Below are positions 1,795 to 46,167 of a stretch of DNA of 64,000 nucleotides, piece after piece. A model generated the notes under the pieces. The model saw only the letters and a program-made list of their open reading frames with translations. It did not search any database and was not told the origin of the DNA. The position numbers and the translations under genes were made by a program. The first letter of the stretch is position 1, and each line of letters starts with the position of its first letter. Origin of the DNA: a virus (Duplodnaviria; Heunggongvirae; Uroviricota; Caudoviricetes); IMG/VR virus record IMGVR_UViG_2703718861_000013; one strand, 5' to 3'.

Positions 1795-4700
1795 ATGGCC
1801 TATTCAGAGGAACAGCGTCCTGAGGCGCAACTCGGTAACCAGAATCGTAACAGCCTGAACATTCAGCAACCCGGCGAAACTGACAGCTATGAAGCATTTT
1901 TCTCTGATCCGAATCGCTGGAAGGATAACAGTACGTCGTTCAGCCTGGGCGATGTATTGCCAACAATGGGTAAAGGTTTCGCCCAGTCCGTCCGGGGAAC
2001 AGGGGAAATGGCCCGTGGACTCGGTGATGCGATGATTCAGAGCCCGGTAAAAACAGGGGCGCGTATTTTAAATGAGTTCAGCCGTATGGGGCTGCCGGGT
2101 GTCGCAACTGTGCAGGATATTTTTGCCGGTGGCAGCAGGGGGGCTGATGAGGTCATCGATACCCTGCCTGATGGCAAAAACGCGGTTACTGATACTGTCG
2201 GTAAAGGTCTGAAGGCAACCGGTAAGGCTGTCAGTGATGGTGCTGAAGCCACTGATGAATGGCTGACCGGTAAGATGTCGCCGGGTGCAGTTCGTGCGCT
2301 GAATACGCCGATGACCGAAGGCTATGATGATTCTGCGGTCTGGGTGGCGAAGGGTGTAAACCTGATTGGTGCGCTTGTACCTGATATGGTTGCTGGCGGT
2401 GTGGCTAAAAAGGTGGGTGATGTCACACTGCGAAAAATGCTGACCGCCGGGCTGGAGAAAAAATACATCGCGGCAGGGATGCAGCCGGAAAGAGCCACGG
2501 CACTGGCAGCAGAAGCTGTCGATAAAAAAATGCCGGATTTATTCCAGGCGGGCCTGATCACCCATTCCACAGCCAGTGCACAGGGGCAGAGTGCAATGGC
2601 GGCAGCAGATGCTGTTCTTAATGCGGATTACTCTGAGCTGGCGCAGTCACCGAAATTTCAGCAGACGTTTTTGTCCATTGACGCCGACCCGCAGCACGCA
2701 CAGCTTACTGATCGCCAGAAAATGGATCTGGCAAAAGAGCGTGTTGCCGATGAGGTGCGCGCGCAGCTGGCAACCGATCCTGAATTGCTGGCTGTGAATG
2801 CCATGGCGGCAAAACTGGGTGACGCACAACTGTTTAATCTGGTGACACGAGGCACAGCGAAGACCGTTAAAAGCGGCATTGTCAGAAATGCCACGGAACA
2901 GGGGGCGATTAATGCGGCGCAGGGCGGCTATTCACGCTATCAGGAAAACACGGCATTGCGTGAGACCGCCGGAATGGATGTGTCACCGTGGGAGGGCGTG
3001 GCTGACGCAACGATCGAAGGTGCAGCCTTTGGTGCTGCGATGGGGGCTCCATCCGGTGCGGTTGCCGGATATCGTGGCAGACGTCAGGCCGCAGAAGAAG
3101 CAGCCATGCGTGATGCTGAAACCGTGCAGCAGGACGACGCAGCCCCGCAACCAGAATCTGTTGATCCGGTGGCGCAGCATCGTGAATCCATGCAGGGGAT
3201 GAATCGCGAGCAGCTTCTGGAGCAGTATGCTGATGCGGATATGGCAACAGAGGGGGACGCATCCGCAGCTCATCGCCGGGAAGCTGCCAGCCAGTTGTTG
3301 AATGAACTGGACGAACAGGCGAAGCGACAGGCTGTGATGAATGAGCTGAAGGCGAAGCCGCGTTCTGAACTGCTTGAGGAATACCGCAGACTCAGCCAGA
3401 AAGAGGAGCGCACCGAGACTGAAGAACAACAGTTTCAGGCAATACGAGAAGTCATTCGCCCACAACAGGAAGTGACGCCGGAAGCACAGTCACAGCCTGA
3501 AAATGCGGAGGATGGTAACGGGAGCATTTACCCGACGGTGCGGTTCCGGGACCCGAATGAAGTCCGCATTGAAATTAACGGGAATGGTGCGTCCAGACCA
3601 GCGGAACGCATTGAAAAGGTGCGCCCGGACAACCGTTATTTCACGGATGAGAAAAGCGCCATGGGGAGTGATGTTTTCCGTAATGCCGCCGCCACCGGCC
3701 TGAAACCGTCCGTAGTGAAGAAAGGCGAGACTCAATATGCTGTTGAAATGGATAATCCTGCGTTCTCTGAAGATGTGGCAACGGAAACCATTAACACCCT
3801 GGCTGACGGAGAGCGTATTGCTGATGCTGACCCGATGGAGCAGCCCGCGTTCATGCGTGACCCACGATTCCGTGGTTTCACGGGGGATGATACGGAGGTA
3901 CAGGCCCGCCTTGCCCGTGGCAACGTGCCGACGGCAGAGGAGCTTGTACGTTCACAGATGGCTGAAGGTGATGCCGGTCCGACAGCACAGGAGTTAACTG
4001 AGCGTCCACGCCTGCCCGCTCCCGGCGATATTCATCCCGGACAGGGATATCCGTTACCGGGAGAGGTGGCGCGTACGCCGGATGAGAATCAGGCAGGACG
4101 TGGTGGTCGTTTTACCACAACCGGTGAGGTTAAGGGCCAGAGTTTCCAGAAAGGACAAGCTCTGGCACCGGAAAACGCCGCTGGTCGCCAGGGGGAAACA
4201 CTCGAGGGTGAAATGGTTCGTCGTGGTCTGCCGTCACCGGATGCGCAGAACGCGACAGCACCGGTACGTGAAGGGCTACCGGCTCCGGACATTACACACA
4301 ATGTCCGTATGCCTCAGCCTGATCAGCTTCCCCGAACTGTTCGTAACTCATTGCCTGAGCTCGCACAGCAGGCAGAAGTACGTCGACAGGCCGGAGGAAA
4401 TCGTGACATCCCGCAGCCTGAGACAATCGCACCTGAATCTGAAACAACAGTCGCTACTGACAGGGAAGCTACCGTGCGCGGAGGTGAAGTCAGGGGCAAA
4501 AAAATTGAAGACTTTGGTGAAGAAATTAAGGGCGCGGCAAAACACCGTTATGCACAGCTTGCTGAAACACTGGGTAAAACGCTGGAAGACAGGGATTATG
4601 TCACGCAACCGCTGAGCAAACTGTTCCCGAAACCGGACTACGCAAAACTGGCGAGCGAAGGGGCTGATGCTGACACCCTGGCAATGATAGCGCTGTATCG

Positions 4701-18705: not shown

Positions 18706-18770
18706 GACTCCATTGTCAGACGGATGGATGGACTTGAAGTAGTTGACTCAATGCTACTTAAGGTCCTGAT

Positions 18771-20354
18771 ATGACTGACATTAACCATGATAATACTGTA
18801 TATCCATCCAGTTCTTTCTCTGGGTCTCCCTATCTGTATCAGCAAGTCTGCACCTCAAGTCCTGACACAAGGCTGACACAAATCAATCTACTCAGCGTAG
18901 CTAAGCCTCAGTTAGTCCGTAGAGCCAATGGTCGATATACTATCCGCTTCAGACTCAAGGGACAGACCATCCCGTTTCTTTCAGTATCGACCCGAAGCAC
19001 AGACAGGAGAGTAGCCACAATGCGTCAGAGAGAGCTTGCAGCCACAGCTAAGTCCTTCATGTTGGATAGGCCTGATGTCTCGCTACAGGAGCTTACGGAC
19101 CACCTCCGGTCTATGGCTGAGCAGTTCCTGACAGACGCCAGTGATGACTACTGGAATGGACTTGAGGTCGCTACTCTGGTGGACGAGAAGTCCAACCTGA
19201 AGGAGCTAGCCGCTACGCAAGCCTTGAGTCTGGACCAGCAGAAGGGCATAAGGTTAGCGCTTGAAGTCCTGACCGCAGCACAGCAGAGGGTAGACACTGG
19301 TGATGCCTCTGGTCTGATTAAGCTGATTGATGATAATAACCATACTGATTACTCAACTATAGGCGACTCTACGTCAATTCTGAAGAATGAGCAGGGGGAT
19401 AGACCAGCAGTTTTCACACAGGAGCGTCAGCCATCTGTGGTTTTTTCAAGCCTAGTGTCCTCGCTGCTGGCTGAGAAGGTCCAGACCCTGAAGTCCTCCA
19501 GCTACAAGGACCTGTCGTCCTCACTGAATACCGTCTCTCGGTTCTTACCTGAAGACATGGACCTGATGTCCCGCTCTGAGTGGCTGGCTGTCAGGGACTC
19601 CATGCTGGCTGCTGAGGTGAGACCATCGACAATCAACAAGCTGCTGACTAAGGCGAAGATGTGTCTTGATTATGGCCTGATGAATGGGCAACTTGAGGGC
19701 CGCAACCCTATTGAACGGATGAAGCTGACCAAGGATATCGACTCCAAGCGCAGAGCGTTCACAGACGAGGAGCTGGAGAGACTTCTGGTCCGTGTTGAGT
19801 CTGAGTATCAGTTCACACGACACACGGCTCACACGACCTCTGAGGCCCGTAGATGGGCGTCTCTGGTGTCTGTGGTCACTGGCGCGAGGTCTGCTGAAGT
19901 CTGCCACCTGACTAAACGTGACATTGTCACCTTAGACAACGGTTTAACCTGCATCGACATCAATGAAGATGGGGACGGTAAGTCTGTGAAGAACAAACAT
20001 TCAGTCCGACTTGTACCGCTGACCGATGGGGCCTGTGGGTTCGACCTGAAGTCCTTCCTTGAATGGGTAGACACGCAGCCTGACGACGGCGGTCCTCTCT
20101 TCGGGATGACTCCGAGCGCCTACTCTAGCTGGTTTAACTCTAGGGTCCTGACTGAGGCACTGGGAGACGCTGAGAACGTTTCTCTCCATAGTCTGAGGCA
20201 TTGGCTGGCGACCCGAATGAAAGAGCGTGGAGTCAATCTGGTGGACGCTCAGGGCATCTTAGGCCATAGCAGTCAGTCAATTACGTATGACCTGTACGGG
20301 AAAGGACACGCTGTTGGTAGGCTGGCTGAGGTGCTGAAGACAGCTTTACTTTAA
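18771..20354 (+). CDS. int: tyrosine recombinase (integrase); start codon uncertain
   Basis: C-terminal R...HSLRHWLATRM...GHSSQSITYDLYG signature; arm-type repeats overlap the 5' end of the longest ORF, so the true start may lie downstream. Confidence 0.85.
   Translation: MTDINHDNTVYPSSSFSGSPYLYQQVCTSSPDTRLTQINLLSVAKPQLVRRANGRYTIRFRLKGQTIPFLSVSTRSTDRRVATMRQRELAATAKSFMLDRPDVSLQELTDHLRSMAEQFLTDASDDYWNGLEVATLVDEKSNLKELAATQALSLDQQKGIRLALEVLTAAQQRVDTGDASGLIKLIDDNNHTDYSTIGDSTSILKNEQGDRPAVFTQERQPSVVFSSLVSSLLAEKVQTLKSSSYKDLSSSLNTVSRFLPEDMDLMSRSEWLAVRDSMLAAEVRPSTINKLLTKAKMCLDYGLMNGQLEGRNPIERMKLTKDIDSKRRAFTDEELERLLVRVESEYQFTRHTAHTTSEARRWASLVSVVTGARSAEVCHLTKRDIVTLDNGLTCIDINEDGDGKSVKNKHSVRLVPLTDGACGFDLKSFLEWVDTQPDDGGPLFGMTPSAYSSWFNSRVLTEALGDAENVSLHSLRHWLATRMKERGVNLVDAQGILGHSSQSITYDLYGKGHAVGRLAEVLKTALL
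18863..18881 (+). repeat. two direct copies of tgacacaa (arm-type site candidates, left end)
   Basis: ctgacacaaggctgacacaaa; three further copies at 25170-25200. Confidence 0.5.
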
Positions 20355-20361
20355 GTAGGAA

Positions 20362-20409
20362 GACCCAAGGTGGAGACCATATACGGCTTGATGGTTGAGA
20401 CCTTGGGTC
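20362..20409 (+). other. perfect 9-bp inverted repeat (gacccaagg / ccttgggtc) with 30-nt spacer just after int
   Basis: Read directly; possible terminator or RNA processing hairpin. Confidence 0.4.
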
Positions 20410-40184: not shown

Positions 40185-40224
40185 GTGTTGATTTCAGGTC
40201 ATGAGGTAATTTTAAGGGGGACTT

Positions 40225-40647
40225 GTGGCAAAAGTTTTTACACAAGAAGAGCGGGAAAAAATTAAAGGGCAGGTGGTGGAACTCGTGCGCCAGAGCGGTC
40301 GTGAGACGTTACGGCAACTGGAAGCTAAAACAGGTGCGACTAGATATCTGATGAGCGTTCTTGCCAGAGAGCAGGTAGCCAGTGGCGATGTATACAACTC
40401 CGGCTACGGGTTATTCCCGTCTGAACAGGCGCGTAAGGACTGGCAAAACGCCCGCAAAAAACTCTCGAGGGCAAAGGTGAAGAAACCTGCTGTGGTTGAT
40501 CCGGACCTTATCTGGTCATTACCTGACGGAGAAATACGCCGCTACGACAGTCGTCTAAACATAATCTGTCGCGAGTGCCGGAAGAGCGAAGTTATGCAGC
40601 GTGTTCTGACGTTTTATCAGGGGAATTATCGGGAGGTGATGCTGTGA
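40225..40647 (+). CDS. hypothetical protein (140 aa), GTG start
   Basis: AAGGGGG RBS then GTG. Confidence 0.4.
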   Translation: MAKVFTQEEREKIKGQVVELVRQSGRETLRQLEAKTGATRYLMSVLAREQVASGDVYNSGYGLFPSEQARKDWQNARKKLSRAKVKKPAVVDPDLIWSLPDGEIRRYDSRLNIICRECRKSEVMQRVLTFYQGNYREVML

Positions 40648-40877
40648 GTACATCGGCTACCATTCTCGACATGTGCTGTGGCAGTCGCATGCTCTGGTTC
40701 GATAAGAATGACGAATGGTCGATATTTAGCGATATCAGGAAAGAGGAACATTCGCTATGTGATGGACGTCACCCGATTATTAATCCCGACATTATCGCTG
40801 ATTTTCGTGCGCTGCCGTGGTTGTCTGCTTTGCATCAAAAGCAGACATTACCAGATTTAGACATCTGTTTCCGATAG
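40645..40877 (+). CDS. short ORF with SAM-methyltransferase motif-I-like N-terminus (ILDMCCGS), probably truncated
   Basis: Stops after ~77 codons. Confidence 0.25.
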
Positions 40878-40930
40878 CCCGTTCTGATGCTACACTTTTT
40901 GCTATTTTCATGAACCTCATAAACACATTT

Positions 40931-41596
40931 ATGACTGTTGCTGATTTCAAACGCCCCAAATTGGAGCTCCCAAACGGGGCAAAAAAACTATTACTGCACT
41001 CTTGCTGTGCTCCATGTTCCGGTGAAGTGATGGAGGCGCTTCAGGCCTCGGGAATCGACTACACCATCTTTTTCTACAACCCGAACATTCATCCTCAGAA
41101 AGAGTATTTAATTCGTAAGGATGAGAATATTCGCTTTGCTAAACAACACGGCGTGCCATTTATTGATGCTGATTACGACACAGACAACTGGTTTGAGCGA
41201 GCCAAAGGAATGGAATGGGAGCCTGAACGAGGGATCCGTTGTACCATGTGTTTTGACATGCGTTTTGAGCGGACTGCACTGTATGCCGCTGAAAATGGTT
41301 TCAGTGTGATCAGTAGCTCACTGGGCATTTCACGCTGGAAAAATATGCAGCAGGTTAACGACTGTGGACGGCGAGCCGTCGCGCATTATCCGGGCATGGT
41401 GTACTGGGATTATAACTGGCGAAAACAGGGCGGCTCTTCCCGCATGATTGAAATCAGCAAGCGCGAACAATTCTATCAGCAGGAATATTGTGGCTGCGTG
41501 TATTCACTGCGCGATACCAATCTACACCGCAAATCTCAGGGACGCCCTCTAATCAAAATTGGTCAACTGCACTACGGTAAGGAAGGACAGGAATGA
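40931..41596 (+). CDS. queH: QueH-like protein (DUF208, epoxyqueuosine reductase family)
   Basis: [11 protein letters not shown]...FFYNPNIHP...CTMCF...EYCGC cysteine pattern; start uncertain. Confidence 0.6.
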
Positions 41597-41676
41597 TTTT
41601 ATATTATGCCAACGGAGCGTAGCAGTGTTTCTATATATAGTACGCCTACCTTAATTTTCAAATAATCATGATTAAT

Positions 41677-41717
41677 GAGCAGGTCATCAGTGCAAGCAAT
41701 GACCTGCTCATCTTGTT
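41677..41717 (+). terminator. stem-loop after the QueH-like gene
   Basis: gagcaggtca...tgacctgctc, short T-rich tail. Confidence 0.4.
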
Positions 41718-42208
41718 GAAATTAGAGGAAATCTTGCAGCCATGATATGGCTTAAAATAACGTTTGATTATTTTACCTGCTGTTTGTCCCTGGTTTAAAG
41801 TCGGTTGTCTGATTTGATTACGCGCAACTGACGCTTACGTATTGAAGTAACGAGCACGAAGACACATATTTATCAGTGCCTGTATACGTCAAGAGCAGGA
41901 GATTTATGTGCTGGTTCTCAAATGCACGCTGGCTATTGTGGCTGTAATGGCAATTTATTGTCTTGTTATTGTTCTTATGGATCACCTTTCTGATTGATTT
42001 CATATTGGCGAGGTAACGGTAGTTAAGTAGAATGGCTGCGGGTGCTTGAGGCTATCTGCCTCGGGCATGAACACCAACGGCAGATAGAGAAAAGCCCCAG
42101 TTAACATTACGCGTCCTGCAAGACGCTTAACATTAATCTGAGGCCAATTTCATGCTAGACACATGTAGGTTAGCCTCTTACGTGCCGAAAGGCAAGGAGA
42201 AGCAGGCT

Positions 42209-42364
42209 ATGAAGCAGCAAAAGGCGATGTTAATCGCCCTGATCGTCATCTGTTTAACCGTCATAGTGACGGCACTGGTAACGAGGAAAGACCTCTGCGA
42301 GGTACGAATCCGAACCGGCCAGACGGAGGTCGCTGTCTTCACAGCTTACGAACCTGAGGAGTAA
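42209..42364 (+). CDS. hokD: Hok-family type I toxin
   Basis: MKQQKAMLIALIVICLTVIVTALVTRKDLCEVRIRTGQTEVAVFTAYEPEE; overlapping upstream mok-like frame from 42152. Confidence 0.85.
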   Translation: MKQQKAMLIALIVICLTVIVTALVTRKDLCEVRIRTGQTEVAVFTAYEPEE

Positions 42365-42434
42365 GAGACCCGGCGAGGGAGAAATCCCTCGCCACCTCTG
42401 ATGTGGCAGGCATCCTCAACGCACCCGCACTTAA

Positions 42435-45359: not shown

Positions 45360-45669
45360 TTTAGGGGACAGAAAAACTCCTTAATACTGATAACCTGGTG
45401 CACCATACACACGTTCCTGGAGAAAACTACTTTGTTGATAGGGTTGAAGGTGTCTGGATGTCTAAAATAAACATTGCTTCATATGTTCAACTATGAGTTA
45501 ATGACTGCGTCGGTTTGAAGAACAGACGATATACGAAGTAGTTTACTAAAGCAGTTCTCATTTCAGGTGTTATTCACTTATTCCTTCTTTGAGTCTCTCC
45601 AATTAAGTACGAAGTCGTTTCTGTTATGCAAACCATTTATGCCGAAAGGCTCAAGTTAAGGAATGTAGA

Positions 45670-45885
45670 ATGTCAAATAAAATGACTGGTTTAGTAAAAT
45701 GGTTTAACGCTGATAAAGGTTTCGGCTTTATTTCTCCTGTTGATGGTAGTAAAGATGTGTTTGTGCATTTTTCTGCGATTCAGAATGATAATTATCGAAC
45801 CTTATTTGAAGGTCAAAAGGTTACCTTCTCTATAGAGAGTGGTGCTAAAGGTCCTGCAGCAGTAAATGTCATCATTACTGATTAA
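45670..45885 (+). CDS. cspB: cold-shock protein CspB-like
   Basis: [38 protein letters not shown]... Confidence 0.85.
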
Positions 45886-46167
45886 AATTCATCGCTCGTC
45901 TGTATACGATAACGAAGAAGGCTGATGCCTGAGTAGAGATACGGACAGAGTAGTGAATATTGGATTTCTTTAATAAAAATTAAGGAGGTCCAATACATGA
46001 AACAATGGCCAGCATATTTGGCAAAATCTTAATCAGGAAAAGTATGCTAACCATTGTGGTGAAGTGCAGGTTTGCTGCATGAATAGTTTTACAGCAGAAG
46101 CTAACTGCTGGCATGGCAAAACAAAGTGCGTAAGTGGATGACTCCCACAAAAAGCACCACAATCTCA

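Follow-up and report, generated by a model that had tools for sequence, protein, structure and literature searches.

A queH gene in the cargo slot of a Qin-type lambdoid prophage of Escherichia coli as a probable cobalamin-independent back-up for QueG

Introduction

What does a gene for an epoxyqueuosine (oQ) reductase do in a prophage of Escherichia coli, a bacterium that normally uses its own enzyme, QueG, for this step? The question is raised by a 64,000-nucleotide stretch of DNA from IMG/VR virus record IMGVR_UViG_2703718861_000013 (the whole stretch is hereafter called the window), in which a Qin-type lambdoid prophage carries a queH gene. E. coli cannot synthesize cobalamin de novo, and its reduction of oQ to queuosine (Q) is reportedly cobamide-dependent, to go by the title of a 1988 article by Frey and colleagues. 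QueH is an iron-sulfur enzyme that uses a [4Fe-4S] cluster and an adjacent iron to convert oQ-tRNA to Q-tRNA without cobalamin. QueG is cobalamin-dependent (PMC5175355, PMC4646009), and QueH is known as its non-orthologous, B12-independent replacement (PMC5372724, PMC6461909). Hutinet et al. (2019) reported no QueA, QueG or QueH homologue in the viruses that they analysed (PMC6884629), and our full-text literature searches found no paper on phage- or prophage-borne QueH.

Here we argue that queH was probably captured, together with its own promoter, into a cargo slot of lambdoid phages, where it would provide lysogens with a cobalamin-independent back-up for QueG. The protein's identity is not new, since RefSeq lists the identical WP_001595803.1 as "epoxyqueuosine reductase QueH." The advance is therefore a modest one, contextual and not mechanistic: a known enzyme in a phage context that seems undiscussed.

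Results

The preliminary description of this DNA, made from its letters, had pointed to a cysteine pattern of the DUF208/QueH type in this region. In a mechanical call, the third open reading frame (ORF) spanned 40817-41596 on the + strand, and the stop codon of queH ends at 41596; the ATG at 40931 was adopted as the start in agreement with homologues and RefSeq, giving a coding sequence (CDS) at 40931-41596 (+) for a protein of 221 amino acids (aa). The search for a QueH profile match, on which the initial assignment depended, returned a full-length match to Pfam PF02677 (E 1.7e-65; 220.8 bits against a cutoff of 23.5; model positions 1-174 of 175), far beyond chance, and the cysteine pattern was found to be real, comprising the motifs CCAPC, CTMC and CGC. 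In alignments with 31-35 diverse family representatives of 36-86% identity, the prophage protein kept every invariant column (15-17), and its seven cysteines, C25, C26, C29, C104, C107, C187 and C189, were invariant in the family alignment. C29 was invariant across 36 sequences when the Thermotoga maritima enzyme was left out of the alignment, and is Asp in T. maritima alone. Mutants C9S and D13N of the T. maritima enzyme have been deposited in the PDB, and these two positions align with C25 and C29, respectively, of the prophage protein.

The predicted structure agreed with this assignment. A phmmer search of the PDB matched only T. maritima QueH (7LC5 and variants, E 5e-22), and an AlphaFold2 model of the prophage protein (predicted local distance difference test, 95.9; predicted template modeling score, 0.91) retrieved 7LC5, 9D86 and 7LC7 as top Foldseek matches, with a target-normalised template modeling score of 0.92 and a root-mean-square deviation of 1.2 Å; the next matches below the QueH structures were TtuA, at E ~1e-5. 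Judged by profile, invariant residues and predicted fold, the product of 40931-41596 is thus confirmed as an unambiguous QueH, and it is predicted to be catalytically competent, reducing oQ to Q at position 34 of tRNA-Asp, -Asn, -His and -Tyr. The protein also matched phrog_3217 of PHROGs v4, labelled "unknown function," at E 5e-136, and this phrog can therefore be assigned to the QueH family.

Is such an enzyme needed in E. coli? queG was found in all 5,426 complete E. coli genomes, which bears out the initial premise that this species normally uses QueG, so that queH is always redundant there; REL606, for one, has both genes. A queH CDS was detected in 995 of the 5,426 genomes (985 of these at a coverage of at least 80%), and 1,013 of its 1,016 placements were chromosomal; all 30 of the matches listed carry a QueH annotation. 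Carriers include REL606, E. coli C, O104:H4 and many O157:H7 strains, and K-12 is without the gene. The region around queH, 40200-42150, matches that of E. coli STEC2018-607 with 100% identity. At a coverage of at least 80%, the whole stretch was found in 71 genomes, among them those of E. coli B REL606 and E. coli C. It also occurs at 99.7% identity in the phage record HannyBb (45.3 kb; source given as bird faeces), in which queH is annotated as hypothetical and its start is placed 21 nucleotides (nt) earlier, at window position 40910. Among IMG/VR entries, 216 viral contigs contained a relative.

The host element is inserted beside rspB and looks like a complete lambdoid prophage of the Qin type, with the order integrase, exonuclease, dicB, cI/cro-like, YdaT, replication, DUF977, queH, hokD, rem, ydfU, Q, lysis, terminase and on to tail genes. 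queH thus lies in its early-right part, before the Q antiterminator, as the initial placement between the replication and Q regions had it. The left border of the slot that it occupies is the DUF977 gene, also termed LygF or "Ren-like" (40225-40647, +; Pfam PF06163, E 6.5e-29; PHROG 142), and the right border is a hok/sok locus of the hokD/mokW type (42040-42364, +; Rfam RF01794 sok, 115 bits; Pfam HOK_GEF, E 3e-23). In every context inspected queH occupied the slot after DUF977, and a scan of 80 IMG/VR queH loci, which used five marker proteins only, found the DUF977 gene upstream of queH in 72. The slot held queH alone, the methyltransferase stub described below plus queH, queH plus a KwaB-like pair, or queH plus TehB/DUF1971; in other genomes it lacked queH and held a methyltransferase or a deletion. 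In E. coli 50EVA, the pair is a two-gene insert between queH and hokD (locus L019, 3375-5014), the second gene being annotated "Kiwa anti-phage protein KwaB-like," and in loci L018 and L020 (~3780-4170) the TehB-family/DUF1971 gene lies on the opposite strand between queH and hokD. The slot is a variable cargo hotspot of otherwise syntenic Qin-type lambdoid prophages, and in this respect the arrangement resembles that of a moron.

Within this slot, the boundaries of the transferred unit were delimited by blastn against the prophage of O104:H4 C227-11, which aligned in three blocks: 40200-40626 (DUF977), 40816-41602 (queH) and 41975-42400 (sok/hok). The middle block, a mosaic module of 787 bp on the + strand at 40816-41602 that comprises 115 bp upstream, the CDS and 6 bp downstream, is the unit common to different prophage backgrounds. 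To its right lies a sub-lineage-specific spacer of 372 bp (41603-41974), present in 117 of 5,426 genomes and absent from the O104:H4-type arrangement; on its own it also matches ATCC 8739, and no annotated feature underlies most of its matches. To the left, homology to phage methyltransferases stops at 40810-40818. A perfect 10-bp inverted repeat, TGTCTGCTTT/AAAGCAGACA, was observed at 40822-40847, exactly on the left junction of the module; it is intact in the 50EVA allele and degraded in the O104:H4 allele, and it overlaps one copy of a 14-nt direct repeat (40819-40832 and 41803-41816, 13 of 14 matching). The direct repeat was considered as a recombination site and dropped, as by estimate ~0.2 such pairs are expected by chance in 1.7 kb.

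The short ORF upstream of queH was described at first as a methyltransferase-like frame with the motif ILDMCCGS and a stop after 77 codons. This description holds, except that the start lies one base away from the coordinate given, at GTG 40644; this codon shares bases with the DUF977 stop TGA (GTGA) and is preceded by a GGGAGG Shine-Dalgarno sequence. The frame, at 40644-40877 (+), is a pseudogene, the remnant of a small phage class I S-adenosylmethionine-dependent DNA methyltransferase, as identified by tblastn, PHROG 954, PADLOC and RefSeq. Profile searches of this fragment, which had been suggested at the outset, gave truncated methyltransferase matches: PHROG 954 "DNA methyltransferase" over positions 50-108 of 229 (E 1.4e-24) and PADLOC MTase_II over positions 3-64 of 169. 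The stub therefore represents only the N-terminal third of the enzyme. Its homology is confined to residues 1 to ~60, that is, up to roughly 40815, and tblastn matches to phage methyltransferases spanned query residues 1-62 only. PHROG 954 methyltransferases of the Stx2c phage LC727889 and of Klebsiella phage ST16-OXA48phi5.1 are 63-72% identical to the stub over the ~60 residues at its N terminus, where motif I ILDMCCGS lies; unlike them, the stub lacks everything from DPPH on (~100 residues). Longer relatives run on as PFADASFP(M/I)V(I/V)FDPPHLERVG, and their (L/F)DPPH falls past the end of the homology, so that the motif is missing from the stub together with the C-terminal two-thirds. Full-length versions with DPPH, for which a check of related phages had been proposed, do exist at ~160-175 aa: a 175-aa ORF in LC727889 and a stop-interrupted frame of 160 codons in a Klebsiella phage. 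Truncated forms of 119-125 aa occur in PhiR42_1 and phage Oslo. The same remnant was found in 14 of the 80 IMG/VR queH loci (aligned to residues 12-73 of the full-length protein), and a full-length methyltransferase adjoined queH in none of the 80. Given the partial homology, the RefSeq flag "incomplete, missing C-terminus" and the absence of a full-length methyltransferase next to queH, the stub is a recombination scar and not a partner of QueH.

From where could the module have come? The prophage protein is 75-92% identical to QueH across Proteobacteria and 80-92% identical to chromosomal QueH of Enterobacterales, the closest outside Escherichia being those of Scandinavium (92%), Kluyvera (90%), Enterobacter (88-90%), Symbiopectobacterium (87-88%) and Erwinia (86%), with Providencia at 84%. 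The queH neighbourhoods inspected in five of these and related genera were chromosomal and contained no phage genes: the gene lies between a TmcA-like gene and purC in Providencia, follows purL in Erwinia, adjoins a BenE-family gene and a Tc-toxin gene in Photorhabdus, adjoins a short-chain dehydrogenase gene, a metallo-beta-lactamase-fold gene and Hcp in Scandinavium, and adjoins a DeoR regulator and a GH28 hydrolase gene in Enterobacter. GC content and skew gave no foreign-DNA signal. Two side observations concern these comparisons. Conservation of QueH is unusually high, at 75-92% from Sphingomonas and Stenotrophomonas to Enterobacter (loci L101-L180), and some matches carry odd organism labels (Bacillus subtilis SK7B5, an "Avacidaminococcus" metagenome-assembled genome and a Kingella metagenome-assembled genome) that look like contamination or mis-binning.

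Comparison of upstream regions pointed to a candidate promoter. The extended -10-like element TGCTACACT lies at 40888-40896 (+), 43 nt 5' of the queH start codon. It is unchanged in five divergent E. coli alleles although the adjoining upstream sequence has diverged, and it is placed at -43 or -44 in all 80 IMG/VR queH loci. Chromosomal queH genes carry TGCTACAAT, TGCTACACT, TGCTACCCT, TGCTATATT or TGCTAAAAT at -39 to -44, all of which fit the extended -10 pattern TGnTAnnnT; a motif search located this pattern upstream of queH in Erwinia, Scandinavium, Kluyvera, Enterobacter, Symbiopectobacterium and Acerihabitans. When the 115 bp upstream of the prophage gene were compared by blastn with the corresponding regions of chromosomal queH genes, only short matches at chance level were found. 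Because an element of this type is common to chromosomal queH genes at the same distance, the gene was probably captured with its native promoter, and by this comparison TGCTACACT would act as a promoter. Downstream, a perfect 13-bp inverted repeat at 41675-41711 (+), 78 nt past the queH stop and followed by CUUGUUG, is a possible non-canonical terminator; its predicted RNA fold has -23.9 kcal/mol (z = -3.2), and a consensus terminator scan did not call it.

The same arrangement could be read as serving the lytic cycle, with QueH made mainly from the pR operon after induction, completing Q and tuning NAU/NAC decoding in late genes, so that lysogenic conversion would play no part. queH is indeed co-oriented with its flanking early genes (the DUF977, stub and queH ORFs are all on the + strand), and no terminator was called between the replication genes and queH. 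The retained chromosomal extended -10 element, however, argues for transcription independent of the phage, and we know of no difference in decoding between oQ and Q. We regard a mainly lytic role as very unlikely, and favour the capture of queH with its promoter as a back-up in lysogens.

Sequence divergence between prophage alleles indicated that the gene has been maintained. The window allele differs from its O104:H4-type counterpart by 36 synonymous and 7 non-synonymous changes, which corresponds to a non-synonymous rate (dN) of 0.013, a synonymous rate (dS) of 0.32 and a dN/dS of 0.042; queH is under strong purifying selection. Both alleles share the left junction, and therefore a single capture followed by constrained divergence inside phages is the simpler reading.

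Several observations weigh against a maintained back-up function. BL21(DE3) (NC_012892.2) carries a clean 1,361-bp deletion corresponding to 40522-41882 of the window and has lost queH without obvious harm; the deletion, which also occurs in the BL21 derivatives C43, NEBExpress, BL21-RIPL and Nico21, takes the 3' end of DUF977, the methyltransferase stub, queH and part of the spacer, and REL606 keeps all of these. A strict sigma-70 consensus scan called no promoter upstream of queH, missing TGCTACACT because the candidate promoter has a poor -35; no Shine-Dalgarno sequence precedes the queH ATG; and the hairpin 3' of the gene has no U-tract. Scanning the protein and its neighbours with NCBIfam produced no match to QueH and was uninformative. 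Gene content was judged from a near-identical RefSeq record that covers the window except for 18710-25257 and 62151-64000 (~8.4 kb). To our knowledge, no phenotype separates oQ from Q. If the alleles were captured independently, moreover, the purifying signal could partly reflect constraint in the donor chromosomes.

An alternative is a redundant passenger, that is, a QueH functional by sequence that contributes nothing beside QueG and hitch-hikes in a recombination-prone slot. The presence of queG in every genome, the loss of queH from BL21(DE3) through the 1.36-kb deletion, its absence from K-12 and the lack of any called consensus promoter or terminator would all fit. A passenger would not, however, be expected to show a dN/dS of ~0.04 over a dS of ~0.3 between phage alleles with the same left junction, nor to be intact (at least 80% coverage) in 985 of 995 genomes, nor to keep its upstream element 100% conserved. 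The selection signal and the conservation of the promoter element speak against a neutral passenger, which we consider unlikely.

QueH might also act on a target other than tRNA, either on 7-deazaguanine in phage DNA, as was first suggested for this gene, or as a defence or counter-defence part of the cargo hotspot. Phages do use 7-deazaguanines in DNA (PMC6884629), and the same slot holds the KwaB-like (Kiwa) pair in 50EVA. Nevertheless, no DpdA/TGT, FolE, QueC, QueD or QueE gene is annotated in the near-identical RefSeq record, within the coverage given above, and 2'-deoxyqueuosine (dQ) went undetected in all phage DNAs tested in PMC6884629; the suggestion of a role in DNA modification is thus not borne out. 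PADLOC gave no match for QueH, and the methyltransferase stub was its only match among QueH and the neighbouring proteins. Neofunctionalisation is unlikely because of the 80-92% identity to housekeeping QueH. Taken together, a non-tRNA target appears highly improbable, and tRNA remains the expected substrate of a prophage-encoded back-up.

The rest of the window contains further features. ARAGORN found no tRNA genes in it, and an Rfam scan detected the sok element and a cspA-type element only, with no riboswitch near queH; the latter, a cspA-type thermoregulator 5' untranslated region at 45509-45932 (Rfam RF01766, 159 bits), precedes the prophage cspB. Positions 18710-25257 form an extra 6.5-kb element relative to STEC2018-607 that splits ynfE and encodes a 527-aa protein of the tyrosine integrase family (18771-20354) and a KilA-N domain protein (21794-22552). 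A Pfam search of four of its ORFs identified the integrase and KilA-N, leaving two ORFs with no match, and the region is probably a small integrative element. Positions 1 to ~15250 are the tail-end part of a second prophage of the 933W/Stx type, with, by correspondence to NZ_CP075697.1, an 8.4-kb gene for a 2,793-aa "LPD38 domain" protein, together with Ant and Ea22-like genes. It lies against a truncated 4Fe-4S gene that is presumably ynfG, which suggests that this prophage is inserted in the ynfEFGH operon.

Discussion

The following sequence of events would account for the locus. A temperate lambdoid phage lineage would have taken queH and its extended -10 promoter from a chromosomal donor elsewhere in the Enterobacteriaceae, and the 787-bp module would then have recombined between the DUF977 gene and hok/sok. 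In the sub-lineage of the window, the module would have replaced the 3' two-thirds of a small phage methyltransferase gene, leaving the dead 77-codon stub. In a lysogen, QueH would be transcribed from its own promoter and would duplicate the function of host QueG. QueG needs B12, for which E. coli has no de novo synthesis, and QueH would therefore allow the lysogen or the infected cell to finish Q when cobalamin is scarce. The activity of the prophage enzyme as an oQ reductase in E. coli, its transcription in the lysogen and a benefit under B12 limitation are each expected from this model. The broader statement, that queH is a lysogenic-conversion gene on a retained chromosomal promoter and makes Q completion B12-independent in about 1 in 5 E. 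coli strains, is put forward more tentatively, as a possibility in which our confidence falls somewhat below even.

If this proposal is true, phages would alter the epitranscriptome of their host when corrinoids are limiting in the gut, and queH would be a counter-example to the 2019 finding of no QueA, QueG or QueH in the viruses analysed. Should the enzyme prove active in lysogens, queuosine could be finished without cobalamin in ~18% of sequenced E. coli, but not in K-12 or BL21(DE3); common laboratory and pathogenic strains would then differ in a phage-delivered tRNA modification, and this would bear on studies of Q and oQ, of B12 dependence and of codon-biased translation. BL21(DE3) and REL606 offer a ready-made queH-/queH+ pair of B strains. 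The locus also shows that phages can carry a Q-specific enzyme, contrary to the impression left by PMC6884629, and fills in phrog_3217, so far of "unknown function."

How does the prophage gene compare with known systems? T. maritima QueH (PDB 7LC5/7LC7/9DEU) belongs to the same family, with the same predicted fold and six shared invariant cysteines; it is, however, only ~30-33% identical, has Asp13 where the prophage protein has Cys29, and is encoded on a chromosome and not on a phage. Chromosomal QueH of Enterobacterales is much closer, being near-identical, of the same length and with the same TGnTAnnnT ~40 nt upstream, and is presumably the housekeeping oQ reductase there. Those genes sit among housekeeping and other non-phage genes, whereas the prophage queH has phage replication genes on one side and Q on the other, and its host already possesses queG. 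QueG catalyzes the same reaction, oQ-tRNA to Q-tRNA, and both enzymes are encoded in the same cell, but the two have unrelated folds and cofactors, and queG is core in E. coli whereas queH is accessory. Finally, the phage 7-deazaguanine sets (FolE/QueD/QueE/QueC/DpdA; PMC6884629) are likewise queuosine-pathway genes carried by phages. Those sets make preQ0-type DNA bases and include the DpdA transglycosylase, whereas this prophage, as far as the RefSeq record extends, has none of the set annotated and carries a lone Q-specific enzyme that acts at the level of tRNA.

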